DNA of 46,113 nucleotides from Chrysochromulina tobinii (taxonomy: Eukaryota): contig JWZX01003247.1 of assembly GCA_001275005.1 (NCBI GenBank), positions 1 through 46,113 of the forward strand. The letters run 5' to 3'. Position numbers and translations under genes: made by a program. Position 1 is the first letter of the stretch; the number at the start of each line of letters is the position of its first letter. The notes under the pieces are model-generated. The model was not told the DNA's origin. It did not search any database and saw only the letters and a list, made by a program, of their open reading frames with translations. Shown piece after piece: positions 3,532 through 46,100 of this stretch.

Positions 3532-6075
3532 TCACGGCGCGGCAAACATCTTGCCAAACATGGCCTTGTCCCTCCGCGATTGCTCCTTCATCGCCTCCTT
3601 GAGCTCCTCGAGCTCCTTGCGCACCTCGCGGTTCTGTGGGTCCGCCTTGGCGGCAGTGAGCAGATCCGCCTTCGCGCCTTCGAAGTCCAGATTCAAGCGC
3701 TTCGCCTGCGCGCGCCGGTACAGCGCCTTGACGTTCGCCATGTCGAGCTTGAGCGCGTCGTTGCTCGCCTTCTCCGCCATAGCTCCGTCCCCAAGCTTCA
3801 GATGGCACGCGGCGATGTTGAGGAAGCACGAGAGCGTGATGGCTTTCGACTCACTGAGTTTCGTCTCGATTTCTGCGTCCGACAGCACCGCTGCCGACCT
3901 CACCGAACTCGCCTCTGAAGCCTCCGAAGCCGCCGAAGCCGACGAAGTCGCCGCCGCCGCGCCATCCGAAATGTCGACCCCGGCCTTCTCCTGCTCCCCG
4001 GCCTTCTCCTCTCTCTCCTGTTTGAAATCGGAGAATCGGGGCGCCTTGGAGTTGGAATCCGTGTACCTGCGGAGCCATCTCATGCAATCGTGAATACTCA
4101 GAGGCACCCAACGGCACTCGGCGGCACTCAGGGGCACTCAGCGACGGGTGGACGAACTTGTGCAATGCGAATCGATACTCTCCACGCGCGAAGAGCTTGT
4201 TGCCGCGGCTCTTGAAGCGCATCTGCGCAGCGAGACGCTCCTCGCCGTCCATCGACCACGTCTCCTTGGCTCTGACGAAGCTGAGCAGCTCGAGCTCGAT
4301 CACGACGGCGCTCTCCCTTGCCAAAAAAGGACCAGTCGAATCGAAGCTGGGGCTGCCATACGCCCAAGCCGCCGCCGCCGTGAGCTGCACGAGCTCGCCC
4401 GATTTCATATGGCGGACGGCGGCGTCGATGCACGGCAGGACGCCGGCGGCACCGCCCTCGCTCTGCATAAAAGTACGCGGGCGCTCGATGGGCACCTCTT
4501 CGAGGACCTCGCCGTCCGTGCGCCACGACGGCGAGCCGCCGCCCTCGCCTTGGGCGGTCGAGGCAAGGCGGCGCACCGTGTAACGCACGACGCAGATGGA
4601 CTCTTCATTCGGGGTGAGGTGATCGCCCTTCTCCGACTCCCGCAGTATCTTTTTGATCACCAGCCCATCTGTGAACGGCACCTCCTCCACCTTCGTCCAA
4701 CTTTCGAGGCGCACCTTGAGGCACATGAGAGCACCGTCGGCGCCCGCGTCGGTGCCCGCGACGGCGCCCGCACCCGCCGTCTTGGGCAAGGAGACGCGCA
4801 GCTCCGCCGTCTCATACAGCTGCATCAGCGGCAGTAACGTCTCGAGCCGTGCCGCCAGATCCGCGGGAGATGCGCCCGTCACGGCGCCCTCCTTCTCGAC
4901 CAATCTCGTGCCGATCTCGGCCACTTCCACGTTCGACGCGATCGCACCGAGCGTCACCACCAGACCCTCGGCGCTCGATGCGACCGGCGCGCTGGGCGAT
5001 CTGCGCACCTCGAGATCGAGCTTGACCTCGTACCGCGCCCTCGCCCTCTCCCACCCCTGGCCGCGCCTGAGGACCCGCTTGAGCATCGAGCCGTCCTTGG
5101 TGGCTGAGATGTCTTCGACCCCCACCCAATGCAGCAGCTCGACGGTGATGAAGAGCTCCGCGTTCGGAGGTACGCCGAGATCGGGAGCTCCCGCAGCGCC
5201 GTACCCGAGGGCGGGCGCCACCTTGAGCTCGCACACCTGATGAGGGAGGCACTCAGAGGTCATCGGTCATCAGCGTGTAGGAATGGTGCGACCGCGAGAC
5301 ACTCAGTCGCAATCAGTCGCAATCAAGAGGAGCGCGAGACCCTCAGTCGCAATCAGTCGCAATCAGCGGCAATCAAGAGGAGCGCGAGACCACACACCTC
5401 GCCAGTCGTCATGCCGTTGGCGCCCACGACGGCGCTCTGAAAGAAGGTGGGAACGGACGCGTCGCCTGCTGTGAACGTCTGCTCGAAGTCCTTGAGAAAG
5501 GGTTCACCGTCGCGGCTCAGCCGGCCGGTCCACCTGAGCGTGATCTCGGCGCGCGAGCTCGGCCGCTCCCAGCTCGTGCCCTTGACGAGCCTCCACTTGA
5601 CGAGCTGGCCGTTGTGCGACTGGGTGCGCTCGAAGAGGCGGTGCAGCGTCATCTCGTACTCGAGCACGCTCGCCGCCGGCACGCCGCGCGCCGCGTCGCC
5701 CTCGTCGCCGTAGCCCTGTGAAGGCTGCACTGTGAAGTGCGACATCTCGCCCACTTGCATCGTCTTGAGCCCGGCCTCGACACCCGCGGGCAAGCCGGTG
5801 GATCCGACCGTCAGGCGCCTCCTCGTCGCCTCTTCGAAGGGAGTCTCGCTGCCGGCCACGCGCGCCTTGTAATCGACCTCGACGTCCCACTCTTGCTGCG
5901 GATTGTCGTAGTCGGCGCCCGCGGTGAGGAGCGTCTTGGTCACCGAGTGGTCCTTGAGCACGTCAAAGGTCTTGCCGACGTCCGAACTTTCGAGATGGTG
6001 AGCCGCAAAGTTGCTGCCATCGTCGGGGTCCTCCGGGATAAATCCTCCACCGCCCATTCCATCCGCGTCGTCCAG

Positions 6076-9198: not shown

Positions 9199-12100
9199 TC
9201 AGGACGCCGGCAGCGCAGCGGGCACGCGCACGAGCTCCCGCACGAGCTCGACGAGCTCGCGCTTGAGAAGCGGCACGAGTAGGCCCTCTCGCTCGAGGTG
9301 CATGGGCACGTTGTGATGGAACGTGTCATGCTCAACGACGACGACGGCGCGCCGCCCGCGCACACGCGCCGCCTGGGTCATGTCCTCGAGGTTGCCGCTC
9401 CCAACGTGCACTGCGACGCGGCCGACGCCGGTGCCGTCATTGCCGCTTGTGCCGGTACCGCCATTAGCGGTGCCGCCGCCGCTGGCGTGCTCTCTCGCGT
9501 GCTGCTCGAGCGCGCGGTCGATCGCCTGCGCACACGCATTCTTGGCCGCGTCCGGTACGAAAGAGCCATGCGAACGGCGGAGGTCGACGCGTGGGCCAAA
9601 AGCGAGCACACGCGCCGCCCGGTGCGCGTGCTGCAGCGCAGCGGTGGCGCCCATGGAGGAGCCGAGCATGAGCACACTCTCATACGGCGCTGCGTGCGCG
9701 TCGATGAGGGCGCCGTAGTGGGCGAGGCCCTCCCAGCCGCCGCGCGGGTCCTGCAGGTAGTACGAGTTGGACGGATCCGCCAGATAGAGCACATCGAGCG
9801 GCCCGCCCGCGGCGCGTGCAGCTGCGCACGGAACCTGCCACTGTTGCATGCCCGGCCCCTGCGCCGCGAAGGCGACGAGCAGCACGGGGGCACGATGGCC
9901 GACACACGCGGGCTCAAAGTGGTGGTCGACGAGGGCGAGGCGATCGTTCAACGTGCCTGCAAGCTGTGAAGGGGGCGTGCCGCGATTCCAGCCGAGCCCC
10001 ACGCGCGTGCCAGGCCATTCGAACGCCTCCTTCAAATCGAATTGGTTCGCACCGAGACCGAGGTTGAGAAGGGGCAGGTGGCGCAGCACACGCTCGCGGA
10101 GCTCGGCGAGGTTCGTCAACTCGTTCGCCTGCACGTAGAGGCTCTTGAGCTTCGTCAATTTGCGCAGCGACGTCGGCAGGTCGAGGAGCCGATTGTGGTG
10201 CGCCTCGAGCTTCGTCAATTGCGCGCACTCGCCCAACTCCTCCGGCAATTGACGAAGCTGGTTGCCAAACAGCCAGAGCTCGCGCAATTGACGAAGCTGG
10301 CCGATGGAGCGCGGCAGCTCCGTCAATCGATTGGCCTCAAGGCAGAGCGTCGAGACGTTGGGTAGCGCGGGCAGCAGCTCGGCGACCGACACGATACCGT
10401 TCGAGCCGAGCTGCAGCCGCTTGAGATGGCGCCCCAGGTGCGTCGTCGTGAGCTGCTCGAGCAGTTGCGTCGGCGGCCGCGTCAAAGGCGGCGTCGGCGT
10501 CAGTGTCGGCGCCTGTGGCGGCGTCTGCGTGAGCGGCGATGGCGGATCGTGCAGACGATTGAAGGAGGCCAGCAGGGCGGTCAGCGCACTAGCATGCATC
10601 GGGAGCAGCGGTAGGGAGGTTTGGTCGTTGCCTTCGAGCTCGAGCACAGCGAGATGCGGGGAGGCGAACGCGCCCGTCGTGTCGAGCTCGACACGGCGCG
10701 TTGAGCTCGACACGGCGCCATCGGATGGGAGCTCTCCTTCGTCGCCTCCCTCAGCCGCCCTCGTTCGGCGCTGCTCGTCAGTCTCGTCAGTCTCGTCAAT
10801 CTCGTCAGTCTCGTCAGTCTCGTCAGCCGCCCTCGTTCGGCGCTGTAGGCCCCAGCGCAGGTGCTTGAGCTTCGCGCAGCGCAGGACCACAGGAGGTAGG
10901 GAGGCGAAGGCGTTGTCCTGCAGGCTGAGCACGTGGAGCTGCGGAAGGTCGGCGAGCCAGCACGGGAGCTGTGAAAAGTCATTCGAGCTGAGTAGAAGCT
11001 CGCCCAGCTCGATCAAGTGGCTCAGGTCGTCGGGGAGGGCGCGTAATTGATTCTCGGACGCGTCGAGGACTCGCAGCGCACGCAATCCGCCCAGCGCCTC
11101 GGGGAGCTCGACGAGTGCACGCCGACGCACGGAGAGCGTCGTGAGGGTCGCACTATGCATGCTCCACCAGCCGCGCTCTGTGGGGAGAGGCGAGGGGAGC
11201 GCCGTAGTGGGCAGCTGGGCGCGCGCGAGGGGCTCAACGCCGGTGTGAGGCGTCCCCGCCGTCGTGGGCGCCTCGGGCACATGCCCATCCGCATCTTCGA
11301 ATGCAGTCTCGTCAATCTCGTCAGTCTCGGCCGCCCGCTGCGTCGCGCTCGACACGGCGCTCTCGGTCAGCCCATGAGGCGACCTGAGCGCCGTACCGAG
11401 CGCCGCCTGGTAGCCCGTCAGCGCCGCATCGGCACACGCGAGCGCCGTGGTGGCAGCAGACGCGTCCCCAGCCGCGGCGGCAAAGCGCGCCATCTGCATC
11501 GTCACCAGCGCCGTGTCGAGCAGCTCGCGTGTGGACATCGTACTGAGCGCCGCTTCGCGCAGTGCGTGTCTGTTTGGAAGGCCTTGCGGCACCGCCCCAC
11601 TGCTCCTAATGAGGCAGTCGACCGCTCGGAGAGTGAGAAGCCAATCGCATGCCTCCGCAGCCTCGGCCCACCGCTCCTGCAGACTCCAGACGCCGATCAA
11701 GAGCACGAGCACAGGCGCCGTGGCGGCAGCGGTGGGCAGCTGGGTAAAGGACGCGCCCGGCACAGCGCCCAAGGACGCGCCCGGTACAGCGCCCATGGCA
11801 GAGGAGGCGGGCGGCGGCGGCGCGCCTGGGGTCATGGCGAAGCATGCCGACTGCCTAATTAGGAGTGGCGTGATGCCCAAACGTGCCGCCGCCCGAAGGC
11901 ACAACGCCTCCGCTCGGGACAGCGCGCCCTGACGAAACGCTTCGGTCGCTCTGGGTAGAAGCAACGAAGGCTCCTCCTCTTCCACAGCGCCGTCGCAAGC
12001 GCCCGCATTCACAGCGCCAGCGCCGCCGCTCGTGACGTGGCCCGCATCGTCGTCGGTCCTCGGTGGTTCGTCATCTGCTCGGGACGGCGCGCGTGCCTCG

Positions 12101-15100
12101 GCTCCCGCGCCCGCGGCAGCTCCCGCGCCCGAAGCGGCGCGCTTGAGCAGCAGCAAGAGCGCCGCCGCGAGCGCCGGGACGGTCGTGTGTTCATAGATCA
12201 GGTTGAGAGGGAGTGTGAGGGATGTGCATGCATCGAGCGCCTCGCGCAATCTGGCGGCCGAGATCGACGAGAGGCCCGCGTCGAAGAGGTCGTCCTCCTC
12301 GCTCACCTGATGAGGGACGCAATCAGCATGCACTCAGAGATGCACTCAGAGATGCACTCAGAGGTCGTCCTCCTCGCTCACCTGATGGAGGACGCAATCG
12401 GCATGCACTCAGGAGTCCTCTCACCGCCTCGCCGCTCGCCTCGAGCATGGCGCCGATCACCAACTGTTGACATTCAGCGAAGCTCCAGCCCGGGGAGCGA
12501 GCGCCCACGACGGCGCCACGTCCAGATCTACCCGAGATCGGCGCGCCCGCAGAGGGGAAGGACGGCGTCGCCGCCGCCGCCGTCGACGCCGCCGTCGCCG
12601 CCGCTGCCGCCGCCGCCACTGCTGCCTTCCCCTCCGTCGCCTCCGCCTCCGCCTCCGCCTCCGCCTCCTCTCCCTCCTCTCCCACCTCCGCAGCTGCTGA
12701 GCGCTGTCGTGGGCGTCTCACAGCCGCCTTCCGAGCCTCCGCGCGCCTCGCCGCATCGAATGCATGCGCCTTCCGAGCCTCCGCGCGCCTCGCCGCCTCA
12801 TGCTCCAACGGCTGCTTCACACGCAAGTCCAGTGTGAGCATGGGCGTCCCAGTGCGCAGGCTTGGCAGTTGGAACGCTTCGGCCAGCCCGATCCGTAGCG
12901 GTTTACCGGTCGGTCCACGTGGCAGCGAGGGGAGCATCAGGAGCATCTCGGGCAGCCACCGACGCGAGAGCAGGCCGTTCGAGCCCGCGGCGCGCCGGAT
13001 CCGATGAGAGGGGTCATCAGAGCGGTCATCAGAGAGGTCATCAGAGGTATCATCAGACGTATCATCAGATCCGGGACCATTAGAGATGGAGCGTACCTGG
13101 GCGAGCGTCACCGTCCGCCCCGACTCGCATACGACCGCCACGCCCACCGCCTCGCCCAGCTCCTCGTGCGGCGCGGCGAAGGCGAGCACCTCGCGCACCC
13201 AACCGTACAGCTCGCCCGCGGGCCGTCGCGCCGTGCCGGGCGCCGTGCCGGGCGCCGTGCCGGGCGCCGTGTCGGGCGCCGTGGTGGGCGCCGTACCGAG
13301 CGGCGCGGTGGGCGGCTCGTCGGGCGCCTCGGGCCCGATGCATGCGGCGAGCAGCGCGTGCTCGACCGCGAGCGGCGAGATCTTCTCGCCCGCGCGGTTG
13401 ATGACCTGATGACGGGGGCAATCCGCAATCAGATGACCTGAGTACGTAATCAGCAATCCGCAATCATACGCAATCAGATGAGTGGGGGGGGGGGCACTCA
13501 GAGTGGCTCAGCGACCAGAGCAGCAGCAGCAGCGAGGCACTCAGAGGCAATCCGCTGATGACCTCCTTGAAGCGGCCGGTGAGATGCAGGTGGCCTTCCG
13601 AGTCGAGCCACCCCTTATCTCCTGTCCGGAGCCAGCCGCCCGGATAGAATGCTTCCAAATTTGGGTCGTATCCGAGATGAGCCCGAGGCTCGTAACCACC
13701 AAAGACGCACGCGCCGCGCACGAGGACCTCACCTTCCACTCCCGGAGCGCCTTCCAAATTAAGGAGGCCGGGGCTCCCATCGGAGCTGTACGAGCTCACG
13801 CCCACCTCGGGCCCGGCCGCGGGGCCGACGGAGGCGAGCTTGCGTCGGGTGCGCTCGCGCGGGTTGGCACAGATGGGCAGGGCTTCGGTCATCGCGTAGG
13901 TCGGGAGCACGAGCGCACCTGATGAGGCAGGCAATCAGAGGGACTCAGCGGCCATCCGACGCCATCCGACGCGAAATCCGACGCAATCAGGGGCGCACCG
14001 GGCAGCGCTTCCTCGAGCTGCTCCCCAATGGATGGAGCGAGAGCGGCGGAGCAATTGCGGATAAAGGCGAGTTGGTGAGAGGGAGGCATGCCGGTCGAGG
14101 CACGCACGCTCAGAGCGTAGCGGAGCACCTCCATGTGGATGGTCGGCACGGCGCTGTACCAGGTAGGCGCCGTCGTGGGCGCGCCCAGCAGCGCCTCCGC
14201 CGTGTCCGCTGCCGGCGCTCGGCTCGGCTGTGTCGGCCTTAGGCCAAGGCATGCAAAGAATTGGGCGGCCTCGAATCGGGGCAGGCAGAGCACCGGCGCC
14301 CCGGCCAGCGCCGTGACGAGCACATTGACCATGAGTCCGTGCAGGTGGAAGAGCGGCATCACATTGAGAGCGAGGGTGGTGCGGTCGAGTCGGAGGGTCG
14401 AGCGTACGCAGAGCGCGCCGACCCCCATGGAGGCATGGGTGAGAGGGACCACCTTGGACGGAGGGAGATCGGAGGGAGATCGGAGGACGATGAGGGAGAT
14501 CGGGCGGAGATGAGGGAGATCAGGCGGAGATCGGGCGAAGAGGGAGGTGATCAGAGGGAGATGATCAGAGGGAGGTCAGAGGGAGATTGATCAGATGAGG
14601 GGGGCACCTTTGGACGACGCGTCGTGCCACTCGTGTGCATCACGAGCGCGATCGCCTCACGCCCAGGACGACGCCCCGCAGCCGCAATCGATCCGGAGGC
14701 GGTGCTGGCAGAGGCGCGAACAGCACGCTCGACGGCCGCGGAGGTTGCACACGTCAAGGTGAAGGCTCCGCATAGTCGCAAGTCCGGATGAAGGACCAGT
14801 AACTGCAGCCCCAGCCGCGGCACTGCCACCCTGGCTGCCGCCGAGTGACGGCCCGCTGGCACGATCAGCGCAGCGGCTGGTAGATCCTGAGGGCATCGCG
14901 GAGCGATCAGAAGCGGTCGGAGAGGAGCATCATCAGACGCAATCAGACGCAATCAGAGGGCAGGTGCTGAGGGTGCCGACGTAATCTGAAGCCATCCGAC
15001 GCAATCTGAGTCAATCTCCCACCTCGAGCTCAAAGAGGGTTTCGGCGTCGGAGAGGTCGGGGTTGAGAGGCGCGAGGGGTAGCAGTGAGCTGAGCGCGAG

Positions 15101-23131: not shown

Positions 23132-25444
23132 ATGTCGACGGAGGCGGCCGCGATCGAGAACATCGCCGTGTACGCTCGCATCCGCTCGAGCTCCCAGCCC
23201 GCGGAGGCGAGCAGCGACGTGAGCGTCGTCGACGGCCAGCCGGACAAGGTACGTGCGAAGGACTTGCAATTCAACCTCGATCACGCGTTCGGCAGTGACG
23301 CCAAGCAGGCGGAAGTGTTCAACGTGATTGGCGCGCCGCTCGTGCAGCGCATCACCGACGGATATAATGCGTGCATTATTGCCTATGGCCAGACTGGCAG
23401 CGGCAAGACGTACACGATGCTTGGTCCTGAGAACGCGAAGCTCGACGGCTCGGGTGGCGAGACGGCCGACCTGGGCATCGTCCCACGCGCATGCCTGCAG
23501 CTCTTCAAGATGCTGCCCGCGGGCTACACGGTGACGACAAGCTACATGGAGGTCTACAATGACAACGTCAACGACCTCCTCACGGCCGACTACACGAACA
23601 AGGAATACCTGCCGCTGCGCGAGACGGTGACGGGCCACGTCGAGCCTGACGGCATCACGCGGCGGCAGGTCAAGAGCGCCTCGGACGTGATGAAGGCGAT
23701 CGCGCTCGGCGATAGCCGGCGCGTCGTCGCCGCCATGGCCATGAATCCTCGCTCGTCGCGCGGCCATGGCCTGATCGCCATCGAGACGTACACCGACAAG
23801 GGCATGTCGCACGGCCGGCTCTGCCTCGTCGACCTCGCCGGTGAGATTTTGCCCTGTGATTGCCACATGATGGAGACATGATGGCCAAATGATTGCCATC
23901 TGATCGTCATATGATTTTCATCCGATTGCCAAATGATTGCCAAAATGATTGCGACGTGATTGCGACATGGTTGCCATAGGATTGCGCTATAGGATTGCCC
24001 TCCGATGGACCTCAGGTATGGAGAGCTCCAAAAAGTCCGGCGCGGTCGACGTCTCGGGCCCGTCCGCGGCCAAAGCTCGCCAAGAGGAGGCGAAGCGCAT
24101 CAACATGAGCCTTCTGGCCCTGTCGAATGTCGTCAATGCTCTCGCGTCCAAGGGCGCGATGAAGGTGCCCTTCCGAGACTCGAAGCTCACACGGCTGCTG
24201 CAGAGCTCGCTAGCGGGCAACTGTAAGGCGGCCTTCGTGGTCATGCTGCGCGGCGAGAAGCAGAATGTCGAGGAGGCGACCCTCACCCTCCGCTTTGCTC
24301 AGGCGAGAGTGCCACCCACACTGAGTGCCACACTGAGTGCCACACTGACTACCGCTGGTTGCCAGATTGATTGCCAGATTCGAGTGACATCGATTGCGGA
24401 CCCTCCGTTTGGCGATCTGATGGCGATCTCTCGACCTCCGTGATTGCGGACCCTCCGGATTTCGCAGCGTGCCAAAGCGGTGGCCGCGACCGTGATGAGG
24501 AATGAAGACTCCGTCAAGGCGAGGAGTACAGGGGCGGCCTTCCTCGCCGCCCAGAAGAAGCTCGAGGAAGAGCTGCAGGCGCAGCGCGCCGCGCTGAGCG
24601 CGTACCAGGAGAAGCTCGCCAGCGCTGAAGGCGTGAAGGAGGCTATGAAGGCGAAGGTCGACACGCTGCTCTCGGAGATGCAGTCTCTGCAGCGTGATGC
24701 GGACGACGCGAAGCGGCAGAGGCGTCAAGAGGCGCTACAGGACGAGACGGTGGCTATGTCGCAGGCGGCGCTTGAGAGGCGTGTGAAGGCGCTCGAGCAG
24801 CGCAACCGGTGCGTGGGGGGTGGTCCTTGATTGTGATCTGATCGCGATCTGATTGAGGTCTGATTGAGGCCTGATGGAGCTCTGAGTGCATATGATTATT
24901 GCCTTCATCGGCGCACAGAGAGCTCGAGGAGGAGAATCGTCTGCTTCGTCAACGCGACATCATGCACCGGCTCATCGAGCTTGATCAGCTGGAGGCCGCG
25001 AGCGGCGACGGTGTGAAAGGCGGGCTCGGTGTGAACAAGGAGCAGCTCGCCACCTTCAACACGCCGTCGATGTCCGTGACGGGTGCCTTTGCAGTGCAGC
25101 TTGACCGCCAGATAGAAGAGAGCGAGGTCCGTCGCGAGGTGCGCCGAAAAGCGAGCGCTCAGCGATTGAGCAGTGGGCAAGCAACCGTTCCACAGAGGAG
25201 ATGGTCTCTGCTGCGGATGACCTTTCTATCCAAAAGGGCCAAGGGAAGAAGCGTGGCCCGGGGGAGCGGATTCGCAGCTGCGCGTGGCTCGTTGCGGCGC
25301 GTGAACCCGGCGCCCAAGACGACAAAGAAGGTGCTCTCGCGTGAGGACCAGGCGACCATCAAGATCCAGGCTGTCTGGCGCGGCAAGATGGTGCGCGATG
25401 AGCTCGCGTTCGGGTATGGCGACGAGCACGCGTACGGGTACTGA
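23132..25444 (+). CDS. Divergent N-terminal-motor kinesin with coiled coil and C-terminal IQ motif, about 620 aa; exons 23132-23840, 24016-24302, 24468-24808, 24919-25444
   Basis: IAVYARIR, AYGQTGSGKTYTM, YMEVYND, NPRSSRGH, LVDLAG, VPFRDSKLTRLLQSSLAGN, TLRFAQRAK; tail IQAVWRGKMVR. Three introns join the frames (1863 nt). Confidence 0.92.
23841..24015 (+). other. GT-AG intron (175 bp, phase 1) in the kinesin gene
   Basis: G|GTGAG...CCTCAG|GTATG; many tgattgcc units. Confidence 0.88.
24303..24467 (+). other. GC-AG intron (165 bp, phase 0) in the kinesin gene
   Basis: CAG|GCGAG...TCGCAG|CGT; restores the conserved TLRFAQ|RAK; contains ctgagtgccaca and gattgcggaccctccg repeats. Confidence 0.85.
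24809..24918 (+). other. GT-AG intron (110 bp, phase 2) in the kinesin gene
   Basis: CG|GTGCG...GCACAG|AGAG; ctgatt repeats; restores the coiled coil EQRNR-ELEEEN. Confidence 0.85.
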
Positions 25445-40771: not shown

Positions 40772-43700
40772 TCACGCATGGTGGACGGCGGCCCCGCCCT
40801 GCTGTATCAGCAGCATGCACCATTCAGTGTGGAATGTGGAGGGAAGGTGCGAGACGAGTTCGGCCGCCATCGGCACGAGCGCCGGCGGCTTGGTGCTCAT
40901 GAAGAGCGTGTGTAGCGCTCGCAAGCCGGACAGCGCCGCAGCGCGCTGCTCGGCCGTCGACGAGCTTCGATGGGCGCCTAGCCGGACGGCGTCGAGATGG
41001 GCGCGTGCCTCGCGCTTGAATTGGGCATACAGCACGTCATCGCCGAGCCGCGCCTTGATTTGCATCATTAAGTGCTTGCCTCGCTCATGCGCGCCGTCGT
41101 GGGCCACACGCTCCCGCGCACCGCTACCAGCACCGCCGCCGCCACCGCCCTCGGGTTTTGGTGCCCTCGCGTCGTCGTCGTCGCCGGCGTCGGCGGTGCC
41201 GCACCTCTCCGCCGTCGCCGTCCTTGGGCGCTTTGACTCCGGGGGATGGGCGGCCGCGGAGGCTGCTGCGGTTGCGGGCCGTTTGGGAGCAACGGCAGAG
41301 GCGGCGGCCGAGGCGGCGGCCGAGGCATGCTCGGCAGGAGCAGAGCGATCGACAGGGCCTGGCTGCTTCGGCGTCGGGTGTGACGAACCTCGGTCTGCTG
41401 TTGACGAACCTCGGTCTGCTGTTGACGAACCTCGGTCTGATGTTGACGAACCTCGGTCTGCTGTTGACGAACCTCGGACGCCGTTCGAAGTTGCCCCTAC
41501 TCGCGCCGCTGATGCCGCTTGCAGCTGCCGAGAGCCACCAGTGAAAGCGGGCGAGGCACCGCTTCCGCTGGTGAGAGCAGCGCCGGCGCCGGCGCCGCTC
41601 GCACCACCGGCGCTCGCCGCCCCACCTGCCGCGGCCCCACCTGCCGCCGCCCCACCTGCCGCCGCCCCACCTGCCGCCGCCCCCGCTCTTGCCGCGCCCG
41701 ATCCCGTCGATGGCAGGGCGCTCAGCGGGGCGCGCGGCACAAAGCGAGCGCCTGGCGTGGTCGTGACTGGCGGCGGCGGCGCCGACGTCGCAGGTCCACC
41801 GCCGGCATGGCCCATCGCGCCGCCGGTGTGCACTCGCGAGGCGGCGGCGGCGGCGACAATTGCGGGCATAGACGCGGCCGCGGGGCGAACTTGAGGCACC
41901 GTGGGGTGAGGCGCGGAGCCGTACTGAGCACTTGCATGCAGGGCCGCGGGGCGAACTTGAGGCACCGTGGGCGGAGGTGCGGGCGGATAGCCAGGGCCAG
42001 ACCCGGGCCGGACAGATCTGGCCGGACCTGCCGCTAGACCCGTCGGCAGTCCTTGGCTGTGCGCCGCCGCCGCCGACGACGACGACTGCGTAGGTGCACC
42101 GTTGACGAACCCCTTCGTGCCTCCCGGCGCCAGCGCTGGTGGACCGGTAGGCCCTAAGAGTGCAGATGAGCCCCCTCTCGCCGCCGCCGCCGCCACCGCC
42201 GCTGCTGCTGCGTGCGACCCGGGGGCGGCTCGCTTGGTGGGCAGCGGCGCCGTAGCGGAGGCTGCCACCTGCAGCGCCATTAGCACCTGGCGCACGTGCG
42301 GCAGGTGCTTTGGGACGAAGCGCACGAATCTCGCGCGGAGCTCCTCTCGCCCCGGCATGCCGAAGAGAGATCGCATCTGGTGCTGCATCTCGTGGGGCAC
42401 CACCTCCATCGGAAGGCTGGCGCTGCCGTGAGCACCATGGTTGGCGCTGCCGTGGGCGCCATCGGACGGTTTCGGGAGCGCGAGAAGGGCACGTACGAGA
42501 GCCATGAAGCGAGCATACTCCTCGGCCGTGAGCAGGGTGCGCGCGAGGTTGAGCAGGTCTACAGCCGTCACTGGCGCAGCCGAGGAGCCAGCCGAAGTGC
42601 TCGCAGCTGCCGCCGCCGCTGCCTCCGCCGGCCTCGCAAGAAGCTGATGGCCACCACCGCCCCCCCCCGCCCCGCCGCCCACACGAATGCCACCACGTAC
42701 CGAGGTTTCCCCGGGGTGTAGGCGCCAGTCCTCACGTGGCGGTGCCCACGCCGCCCTTCGCTGCGCTGTCGTGGAGGCGGCAGCGGCGGCACTGCCGGCA
42801 GCGCCGGCGGCGGCGGCGGCGGCGAAGGAAGGGTCGGGTTCTTTCGTGTCACCGCCAGCCACGTCATCGATCATCGCTTGAGCGCCGCTGGGCTCGTCGG
42901 TGTAACGACCCTCGCCGCCACTGCTGACCGCAGCTGCCCAGGCTGCCTCGACGACAGCACCGCTCCTGCCAAGGCCGCCTCCGCCGAGCCCGACACGACC
43001 GGCGCCGCCACCCTCCTCCGCGTCCGCAGCCGCAGCGGCAGCAGCGGCGGCGGCTGAGGTGTACCGAGCACCCTTGCTACTACTACTGGCGAGTGCAGCG
43101 TGCAGCGAGGGCGTCGGTGCGGGTGGCGGCAAAGCGGGCAACGGCCGAGGTCCGAGCGGAGCGCATGGGGTGGCCGCATGGACGCTCTCGCCTTCTTCGA
43201 GCTCCACCGTCCCAACGTCCCCAGACGCGGTGGAGGCGAGCTCCGAGCGTAACTTGAAGAAGCGCTGCAAGGCAGGGTAGCCCTGCCCGAACGAGCTGAA
43301 CTGCTTCACGTGCGGACGCAGCCACAACGAGAGGCCGTCGACCCATGCGCTCTTTGCAAAACGAGACTCGCAAAGCATCACCGCGCCAAAGTCGTTGCGG
43401 TGTCGAATGACACGGCCGACCGCCTGGTTGACCGCACGCATCGCCTGTTGATGATACCATGCTTCCCCGGACAGCATGCCAGAGGCGCCCGAGCCGCCCA
43501 GCCCCGAGCTGCGTGCCGCGCCCGCGCGCCGCTGGTCGAGATACTGCCGCTTGAGCTCGACCTTGGCATCGAACGCAGGCGGAAGCGGCAGACCAGTGAT
43601 CACGACGCCACGGCACGCGCTGTCGGCAAAGTCGACGCCTTCGGACAGCTTGCCGCGGCACACAGCGAGCAGCATCGCGCCGCCCGTGCCACGGAAGAGC

Positions 43701-45843
43701 GAGGATTGGACGGCATCCTGGAAGGTCTGAACGGCCGCCGCGCATTCGGACGCGTCTCGCGGCTCGACGACGAGCGTCTTGAGCTTACGCAATCGCTCGA
43801 GCACCGAAGGGCCGCCGTCGGGTGATGCCAACGCCCACGCGGCGTGCGCTGACTGCATGGCCGAGTAGGAGGGGAAGAAGACGAGGACGCCCTGCGGCAC
43901 GAGGCGCGCGAAGTTGATGATCGCATTGCCCAGGTCGCGCTTCGCATCCTCGCTCTCGCGCTGAGCGTACGACGAGGTGAGCTCATGCCCCGAGGGCCCC
44001 TTGGTGAAGGTGCCGATGAGCAACTGCGCCTGCGGATCGATGACGTGCGGGTTCTCGAGCTTGTACTCAAAGGGCAAGCCCAGCTCATCAGCGAATGAAC
44101 CCAGGGGAGAGAGCGTACCCGAGGTAAGCAGCACGGAGCGCACGCCCGCCGCCTTGAGCGCGCGCATCGCCGCACCCGAATGGAAGCACCAGTAGCCGAG
44201 CACACGTGGCTTGGCGTCGAGCGTGCCCGCGGCCCGTGCCTTGCCCCCGGCGCCGCCCCCCTTGCCGCCCTCGCGCTCTTTCAACTCGTGGATGCAAAGC
44301 CGGTACTCTGCGGGCGAGCGCTCGGGGTCGAACGCAATCTTGAATGCGTCCGCGAGCTTCTGCAGATTGAAGGAGCTCCCCGCGGTCACGCCGAAGCGTG
44401 CTGCCTCACCCAGTGTGGTGACGCACCTGCATCCAAGGCGCGATCCGCAGCGAATCAGTGGTCAGCAAAGCCCGTCAGACGCGCTGGGCGAGCAGAGTGT
44501 CTCCACAGCCATCCACGCACCTCTCACAAAGTTCGACCAGAGGCGTGACCGTGACACCGTCGATGCCTGCCGCGCCGAGCATTCGACCGAGCTCCTCACC
44601 GGCCGCCACGTACCGAGCCTCCGCGCGCGTCTGCTGCAGCGGCACCTTGGCGACGCTCTCGTCCACCGCCAGCAGCAGCTGACGCAGCCGGACGAGCTCA
44701 TCAGGGCTCACGCCGCGCACGCCGCCGTTGGCATTCTCGAGACCGTCCACCTCCGGGTCGACCGCCTCGGAGTCATCGGCGCCGCGGTTCCGTGCGCCCG
44801 CGAGGAGCCGGTCGACCTCGCGCACCGCTCCCGCGAGCTCAAGCGAGCTCAGGTCGAACGAGGCGGCGTCGGCGCACACGCGCTCGATGTTATGCGCTTC
44901 GTCAAAGATGAGCACGTCGCTCGCCAGGTTGATGTTGAGCGCGCGCCGCACCTTCGAATCCAGCAGCAGGAAGGTGGCAATCAAAGGGACTCAGTGGCAG
45001 TCCACCAGGGCACTCAACGGAATTCAACGGCACTCAGCTGGAGCGCGCTGCACCTTCGGATCCAGCAGGTAGTTGTATGGGAGGAAGAGCACGTCCGAGC
45101 ACACCTGTGGGGAGTGTGGGGCGTCGTGATGAGCACTTGCATGCAGGGAAGAGGATGAGGAAGAGCACTTCCGAGCACACCTGCAGCTCCCGCGCGAGGT
45201 AAAATGGGCAGAGCTCGTCGCGCTTGGAGGAGCTCACGAAGTCCTCGATGTCGGGCACGGCGCGCACGCTCTCGTCGGCCGCCGCCTGCGGGTGCGCCAG
45301 CGAGCCGTGCTTGCGCTTCGCCTCCTGCAGCTTGCGATAGTAGACGCAAGACTGGGCTGCTGTCAGTGCCTGGCACGCGGCAGACTGCGACGGGCCAGTG
45401 AGCTTTGATACGTCCTGGTGGCAGCAGAGCTGCTCGCGTGAGCCGAGCATGCAGACGAGCGGCCGGTGCACCGTGCGACGCAGCTCGCGCACCACCTGCT
45501 GCAGCTGCGAGTGTGTGCGCGAAGCGTAGATGATCCTCGGCACGCGCCCGTCGCCGCCGCCGCCACCGCCGCCCGTCCCGAGGGTGGCCGACAAACCCGC
45601 GGCCCACGCTGCGCCTGCCGCGACGTTCGCCGACGCCGCACGCTGCCGCTGGATCTGCGCGCGCCGCCACCCAAGGGCCGCGCACAGCAAGCAGAGCGTC
45701 TTGCCAGTGCCAGTTGGGCTCTCAAGCAGTGCGTTGGAGCCGTGCTCGAGCGCGAGCACGACCTTTTCCATGTACACGAGCTGGACCGGGTAGGCCTCGA
45801 AGGGGAAGTCGACCGCGCATCCCGCGATGTCATACAATGGCAT
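40772..45843 (-). CDS. RTEL1: Regulator of telomere elongation helicase 1 (Fe-S DEAH helicase), about 1599 aa; exons 45843-45181, 45104-45054, 44951-44521, 44426-40772
   Basis: ESPTGTGKT, IIYASRTHSQL, Fe-S cysteines (LCC, AC, SC, LCPFY), PYNYLLD, DEAHN, LTSGTLSP, RGKLSEGVDF, QAVGRVIRHRNDFG, LSLWLRP; harmonin-homology-like helical segments in the tail favour RTEL1 over FANCJ. Spliced length 4800 nt. Confidence 0.9.
41381..41477. repeat. Coding 21-bp tandem repeat, about 4.6 copies (GSSTADR) in the RTEL1 tail
   Basis: tgacgaacctcggtctgctgt repeated, one variant unit. Confidence 0.95.
44427..44520 (-). other. GT-AG intron (94 bp, phase 2) in RTEL1
   Basis: AG|GTGCGTGG...ATGCAG|GTGCGTCA; restores LCER-CVTTL. 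Confidence 0.85.
44952..45053 (-). other. GT-AG intron (102 bp, phase 0) in RTEL1
   Basis: CCGAAG|GTGCAG...TTCGAAG|GTGCGG; contains an in-frame stop; restores LLDPK|VRRAL. Confidence 0.9.
45105..45180 (-). other. GT-AG intron (76 bp, phase 0) in RTEL1
   Basis: CAG|GTGTGCTCGGAAG...CCCCACAG|GTGTGCTCGGACG; restores RELQ|VCSDVLFLPYNY. Confidence 0.92.
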
Positions 45844-45919
45844 CGCAAGCGCGAGGCTCTCGCCACGATTTGTTTGTGCTCGACGCGCGAAAGTAGGTTC
45901 CTATGGGGTGCGGTGGGAA

Positions 45920-46100
45920 TAAAGTTAACTGTTAACGTTAAAGTTACCTAACACACGACAAAGTTACCTAACATTAACAAAAGCTGATCTTGCTTCCCGC
46001 TGGATGGCGTGTTCATAGTTAATGTTAATGTTCATGGTTAATGTTCCATGTTAATGTACAATTGTTCATGGTTATTTGTTCGTGTTCACGTTCCACGTCC
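45920..46100. promoter_or_regulatory. AT-rich upstream region of RTEL1 with reiterated GTTAA/GTTCA motifs
   Basis: aagttacctaaca twice (45941, 45961); gttaac, gttaat and gttcat reiterated; sharp GC drop directly upstream of the ATG at 45843. Confidence 0.4.

Follow-up and report, generated by a model that had tools for sequence, protein, structure and literature searches.

An intron-like insertion in an RTEL1-type gene of Chrysochromulina tobinii is real, young and still segregating, and it is one of a multi-locus class of introns that contain an exon copy. The window, that is the whole stretch of 46,113 nt that was analysed, contains this insertion as a 76-nt unit on the minus strand. The evidence consists of the anatomy of the unit, its presence and absence among alleles, the family cassette inside it, a footprint that recurs throughout the family, and an excess of short homology at the inner joins.

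Gene context and predicted exon-intron layout

The gene lies on the minus strand and is of the RTEL1 type: DEAD_2 and Helicase_C_2 were matched in Pfam, a match to ARCH_RTEL1 was weak and under Pfam's cutoff, and named homologues are annotated as RTEL1. Exon 1 (45181-45843) comprises 221 codons counted from the ATG and is followed by the predicted intron 1 (45105-45180; 76 nt, GT..AG, phase 0), which is missing from 15 of the 31 listed alleles. Exon 2 (45054-45104) has 17 codons with the conserved PYNYLLD motif, the predicted intron 2 (44952-45053) has 102 nt, exon 3 (44521-44951) contains the DEAH motif, the predicted intron 3 (44427-44520) has 94 nt, and exon 4 (40772-44426) encodes the helicase C-terminal domain followed by a low-complexity tail; all of these features are on the minus strand. 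The exons downstream of the 76-nt unit are intact and conserved.

Each end of intron 2 copies its flanking exon, the repeat being 26 nt long and containing AAG/GT, and the filler is made of TGATTGCC-type repeats. With AG/GT in both copies, intron 2 resembles a gain by tandem duplication as described in the available text of PMC3443670. It was present in all 16 alleles that are readable there in frame and absent from relatives at 81% identity. At the intron 2 site of a relative with 69% identity (P0161), the read-through consists of repeated exon peptides around a different repeat filler, and thus the exon-copy footprint may reach other species. A search for an exon copy at intron 3 gave no significant result (228 of 1000 shuffles scored as high).

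Other genes of the window, between 3854 and 40143, were assigned by Pfam to an FKBP, a cyclic-nucleotide-gated channel, an AMP-binding plus carrier-LRR protein, 2OG-Fe(II) oxygenases, an M16 peptidase, an esterase, a fatty-acid hydroxylase, a bestrophin and a beta-lactamase-fold protein. Another protein encoded in the window is 99% identical to one assigned by NCBI to C. tobinii, a haptophyte. More short repeats flanking low-complexity filler were seen at 12285-12412, 10751-10845, 24392-24457 and 5293-5365, one of them being a 75-nt tandem GT..AG unit.

Anatomy of the 76-nt unit

The unit is framed by a direct repeat of 27 nt (45081-45107 and 45157-45183) with 26 identical positions and an offset of 76 nt. 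At up to three mismatches, the 27-nt sequence had two matches in the window compared to an expected 0.00, and none of 100 shuffles reached two. The sequence-only reading had claimed that the first 24 nt of intron 1 copy the following exon and that the donor GT is derived from this exon, and both claims are borne out. On the minus strand the unit (45105-45180) starts with GT and ends with CAG, and its 76 nt are not a multiple of three. The upstream repeat copy (45157-45183, minus strand) covers the last 3 nt of exon 1 (CAG) and the first 24 nt of the intron, and is the source of the donor GT, with which the exon copy starts. The downstream repeat copy (45081-45107, minus strand) consists of the acceptor CAG and the first 24 nt of exon 2. 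The single mismatch of the repeat, at 45169, was found in 7 of the 16 intron-bearing alleles, as judged by the encoded residue.

Between the exon copy and the acceptor, the earlier reading had described an inserted filler. Such an insert is present, but it is not unique: 43 nt of it (45105-45147, minus strand) represent the 3′ half of a multi-copy intron family. This family cassette comprises a conserved core, a CTCAT, a pyrimidine-rich tract and the CAG acceptor. The CTCAT resembles the branch-point consensus, and its A at 45130 is a putative branch point. The insert begins with a 9-nt spacer (45148-45156, minus strand) that had been left out of the earlier description; it is missing from a 78-nt allele (P0194) and looks as if it may have been patched together from adjacent short repeats. 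Since 43 of the 76 nt are family cassette, the unit differs from a pure tandem-duplication intron, in which the whole interior would be exon-derived and both splice sites would come from the duplication.

Positions 45128-45145 match positions 45160-45177 at 14 of 18 places, and the mismatch in the intronic copy lengthens the match of the exon copy to the cassette core. This mismatch may hint at local templating. No inverted pairs of at least 8 nt, and hence no terminal inverted repeats at the site, were found in 45090-45195, and folding of the unit revealed no notable structure (z −1.43). A contig from one public DNA run spans 41654-45930 with no differences from the window; this run is possibly the window's own source, so that the match counts as non-independent support.

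Predicted removal of the unit by splicing

If the unit is left in, the reading frame shifts and the protein terminates at 269 residues. Removal of the unit restores a spacing of 23 residues between the two flanking motifs, as found in 111 of the 113 homologues that have both motifs. The GT..AG ends together with the conserved frame that is regained upon removal correspond to a spliceosomal U2-type intron, and the 76-nt insertion is likely spliced out. Across the family, removal of the unit preserved the frame at all 10 sites with a clear coding signal, and 6 of these units are not multiples of three.

In contigs from seven RNA runs, no spliced joint at intron 1 was found among the joints listed, and a narrower contig search gave no pieces bridging the intron 1 junction among those listed. 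Two pieces of 151 and 158 nt, both from one RNA library, retained introns 1 and 2 and represent DNA or pre-mRNA. One piece from run X19 ends at 45162 with one difference and does not distinguish a spliced from an unspliced template. Run X15 has a loose end of 13 nt at 45168, which was first considered as a strain variant; it matches an adapter, presumably that of Illumina, and is uninformative. An adapter origin of the 27-nt repeat itself was rejected, given that the copy codes for helicase residues that are conserved and that it differs between alleles.

Alleles with and without intron 1

Prokaryote-style gene calls on metagenome contigs run into introns, and consequently such ORFs report the intron state of each allele. 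Of the 31 listed ORFs, 15 belong to the cluster of the window (27 members) and 15 to a sister cluster (18 members), and one is a singleton; the data are at the protein level and the rows are non-independent samples. Intron 1 was missing in 15 of the 31 ORFs, in which the exon 2 peptide is single-copy and yet the frame reads on into intron 2. An intron-less allele with a single copy of the 27-mer, which the earlier reading had proposed to look for, is thus present. One of these open alleles (P0200) is identical to the window at all 221 residues of exon 1, and contigs with open alleles reach 31,766 nt.

The unit recurs in 15 other listed ORFs from three sources (JGI, ENA, Logan). Its 76-nt form was seen in 15 listed ORFs; at the mismatch, 8 of them encode the same residue as the exon and 7 the same residue as the window. 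The remaining carrier, P0194, stems from a single contig and has a 78-nt in-frame form, in which 13 exon-copy codons are directly joined to the cassette. Past the exon copy its peptide matches the translated cassette exactly, and exon and cassette share a 5-mer at the join, as deduced for the DNA from the protein. The 16 carriers have at most one exon 1 substitution compared to the window, two of them also with an alignment gap. Open alleles have 0-5 such substitutions, and most of them have substitutions that are absent from all carriers. This makes assembly collapse of the repeat an unlikely origin of the open alleles. That they represent partly spliced transcripts is also unlikely, given contigs of 7-32 kb.

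Outgroups at 81% identity have neither intron 1 nor intron 2. The earlier reading had pointed out that the same intron position in distant species would speak against a recent gain. The junction is open in 16 of the 17 other relatives that have the motif, in agreement with a recent gain; the exception is a relative with 58% identity (P0173), which is broken exactly at junction 1, with an unrelated read-through that we interpret as a possible parallel gain. In a protein tree the carriers did not form one clade (4 changes), with too few differences for resolution. At the protein level, open single-copy alleles in close kin and absence from the outgroup are both observed, as expected for a recent gain. 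The sequences favour the view that the insertion was gained recently and is still segregating. The earlier proposal of a very young intron made by duplication plus filler is therefore supported, since alleles without it exist among near-identical organisms.

A cassette family with an exon-copy footprint

A second copy of the cassette core lies at 41921-41942 in the same gene, and the core was also matched in 38 metagenome stretches, which we group into 12 regions and which include the intron 1 locus twice. The loci were picked by exact match, which biases this sample of the family. In one DNA run, summed contig depth was about 13,270 for the cassette versus 75 for the flanking contig, a ratio that is not a copy number. 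The core pattern had no matches in viral contigs or in prokaryote genomes, and a looser pattern gave one locus in a viral collection. Related sequence in introns of unrelated genes, which defines introners in the broad sense, was found for the 3′ half only.

Of 33 distinct acceptor cassettes, 24 are preceded by a copy of the start of the following exon that is anchored at the acceptor; among 1500 shuffled pairs, such a copy was found in 17. When 3 strain or tandem duplicates are left out, 22 of 30 independent sites have an anchored exon copy, with a chance level of about 1%. This test supersedes our first repeat survey (37 of 64 at a score of at least 15), whose null of 6.7% was inflated by neighbouring sites. 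At the 20 sites outside tandem arrays, the copies are 10-39 nt long (median 27) and 79-100% identical, 17 of them begin with GT, and the units have lengths of 55-114 nt. The inner join overlaps the family sequence by at least 4 bases at 5 of these 20 sites versus 4.2% of simulated blunt joins (p ~0.001; the null allows greedy extension, and two tandem arrays were left out). At 11 of the 20 inner joins there was no overlap with the three family strings used.

A mirror class of units starts with the family donor, followed by a ragged end and then by a copy of the end of the upstream exon. This arrangement was found at 10 of 45 sites versus 3 of 1000 by chance, and 8 of these units end in AG. A second, unrelated cassette family has the same footprint (23 of 49 sites, 12 copies beginning with GT), and some of its members are plain tandem repeats. 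The orientation of the core (n = 64) was sense in 35 cases, antisense in 5 and unclear in 24. Cassettes that are most alike have slightly more exon-start bases in common than expected by chance (2.5 versus 2.0, p = 0.034). An all-pairs test for shared flanks (rho 0.07, p = 0.28) and a test for regional clustering of similar cassettes (p = 0.41) gave no significant result, and hence nearby templates are unsupported.

Some family units without splice sites remain in frame. One example is the second core copy in the RTEL1 gene (41876-41982, minus strand), which lies between 40-nt repeats in the RTEL1 tail and has a 66-nt period. It has no GT..AG register, is present in all 7 close members checked, and is probably translated. 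Back-to-back exon-copy units differ in tandem number between strains (L002 versus L029; L034 versus L007), which implies zero-length exons or recursive splicing; in the pair L002 and L029, an exon-copy unit is located directly behind a similar cassette in one strain only. In units of 60 and 63 nt at unrelated loci (L003 281 and 531; L033 6317), the bases after one cassette subtype are not GT, and the frame is kept. The two copies of this subtype at L003 are oppositely oriented and 250 nt apart.

Discussion

We favour the view that half an intron was copied by microhomology-guided synthesis amid a local duplication, a DNA-level event to which we assign about an even chance. We infer that template switching took place during DNA repair or replication, at a staggered break or a stalled fork. 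A short exon stretch would have been duplicated, and the same round of copying would have placed the back half of a family intron already present in the genome between the duplicates via a few matching bases. In the first product, about 40 nt of copied exon would have met the cassette at the shared 5-mer, as in the 78-nt allele, and later patching would have turned this product into the 76-nt form; the patched look of the 9-nt spacer suggests this order of the two alleles. In coding DNA, selection would retain only products with a GT start, an AG end and a length sufficient for splicing, or products that preserve the frame. Such selective survival would account for the exact ends and the long duplications. 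Extended to the family, this points more tentatively, and in our estimate somewhat short of an even chance, to a continual, transposon-free making of introns, in which intron halves are copied by microhomology into fresh exon duplications of 20-40 nt, in both mirror forms and in more than one family. The duplication would contribute the splice site that the half intron lacks and make the product long enough to be spliced, and every intron gained in this way would serve as a further template.

The template could also have been RNA. Excised intron RNAs may have been retroposed in a target-primed manner by a non-LTR reverse transcriptase, with the AG as the 3′ end of the RNA, a shortened 5′ end joined by microhomology, and the long variable repeat as target-site duplication. 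Target-primed insertion leaves a fixed 3′ end, a ragged 5′ end, a variable duplication and microhomology at the 5′ side. The exact AG end, the ragged 5′ end, the long duplications of variable length and the 5′ microhomology seen here resemble this outcome, and the combination of variable target duplication, fixed 3′ end and truncated 5′ end is that of a non-LTR (SINE-like) element. Retroposition moreover directly predicts the strong sense bias of the cores, and it has a precedent in the non-LTR introners that make up about 5% of the classified ones in the available text of PMC12130899. However, no listed cassette has a poly(A) or simple-repeat 3′ tail, all of them ending at CAG, and mirror-image units as well as units ragged at both ends would require other substrates. 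In addition, at two unrelated loci one cassette subtype is continued by identical bases other than GT, which looks as though copying had overrun the AG. A scan of 25 ORFs of the window found no reverse transcriptase, a result with little bearing on the rest of the genome. We consider retroposition, the main rival, rather unlikely, while still giving it appreciable weight. A DNA-level event is in line with the mirror class, with units ragged at both ends, with the existence of a second family and with the missing tail. The comparisons of shared flanks and of regional clustering, which were meant to tell a DNA from an RNA template, gave a weak signal for the nearest cassettes and otherwise none.

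Both mirror classes would be simply explained if the intron position were old and one end of a resident intron had been overwritten by exon sequence, by half-completed mRNA-templated intron loss or by tandem duplication across the acceptor, the open alleles then being precise losses. The strain-specific unit behind a similar cassette (L002 versus L029) and the break at junction 1 in P0173 point in the same direction, and such a scenario may apply to other family sites. At intron 1 it is very improbable: all but one of the 17 other relatives that have the motif are open, the open alleles are more diverse than the carriers, and the sequence has no older intron upstream of the 76-nt unit. We judge it very improbable that the unit is an unspliced insertion in a truncated null allele, or an artefact of assembly. 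All the RNA-library pieces seen were indeed unspliced, but the exons downstream are intact and conserved, the species appears to be haploid according to the available text of PMC4580454, 16 listed ORFs from three sources contain the unit, with substitutions of its own, and restoration of the frame holds across the family. A classical MITE-like introner, a cut-and-paste DNA transposon whose splice donor comes from the target-site duplication, would share the multi-copy nature of the family and the splice-site logic of classes 4/5 and 6/8/10 in Symbiodinium and Polarella (bioRxiv 2020.10.14.339549, as far as its available text describes them). This origin has hardly any probability in our view, because the duplications measure 10-39 nt instead of a fixed 3-9 nt, the inner end is ragged, the site has no inverted repeat and its folding is ordinary.

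Intron 1 has partial parallels in known systems. In the introner-like elements of Symbiodinium and Polarella glacialis (classes 4/5 and 6/8/10; bioRxiv 10.1101/2020.10.14.339549, available text), the acceptor is also carried and the donor recruited from the target duplication, an arrangement that is reviewed in PMC11282704 as well. Their duplication has a fixed length of 4 or 8 nt, and inverted repeats are described for the Symbiodinium elements, whereas the duplication found here, with 10-39 nt, accounts for a third to half of the intron length and meets the cassette in a ragged inner join. The introners of marine Chrysochromulina (PMC9860276) are from the same genus, are likewise short and co-opt one splice site from the target, but the example figured there has a 4-bp duplication and carries its 5′ splice site. 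That 2022 screen, according to its available text, demanded similarity near both intron ends, while the 5′ parts of the introns described here are locus-specific exon copies. In a 2025 screen, C. tobinii was scored with 0 introner families (PMC12130899, supplement file 7). Without fixed ends, inverted repeats or duplications of fixed length, intron 1 is not a classical introner.

Intron 1 combines features of break-repair neointrons and of gain by tandem duplication. As in the neointrons of Daphnia pulex that are attributed to double-strand-break repair (PMC4202315, available text), the gain is segregating and a direct repeat is shared with the adjacent exon and accompanied by filler; later internal rearrangement and parallel gains are further similarities. 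The repeats shared with exons in Daphnia measure 4-12 bp and the filler is mostly untraceable, whereas intron 1 has a far longer repeat of about 27 nt and a ready-made half intron of a family. In tandem duplication of an AGGT-containing exon (PMC3443670, available text; PMC4974935 is listed as a case in potato), a duplicated exon also provides a splice site and leaves the protein unchanged. There, both sites are supplied by the duplication without a foreign cassette, while intron 1 imports the branch region and the acceptor. The main text of the C. tobinii genome paper (PMC4580454), in its available part, mentions introns once. Our literature search, which covered few subscription journals and supplements in part, found no description of long exon-copy introns in Chrysochromulina.

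The origin of the sequence of new introns is an open question, and most young introns have no traceable source (PMC4202315, available text). Here the source, the footprint and the alleles before and after the gain are all visible in one species. C. tobinii is a cultured alga with a small genome and published RNA-seq data (PMC4580454, available text). Open, 78-nt and 76-nt alleles coexist at one site, so that intron birth from a DNA or an RNA template, and selection on length and frame, become directly testable. The joining of a duplicated exon piece to a sequence common to many genes, in a unit that is likely spliced, points to a route to new introns that has been overlooked and is likely still in use. 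Exon-copy introns expose a blind spot in published introner screens: a screen that requires similarity at both ends would miss the copying of half an intron, and this route, if true, may account for intron gains in genomes that were scored as free of introners.
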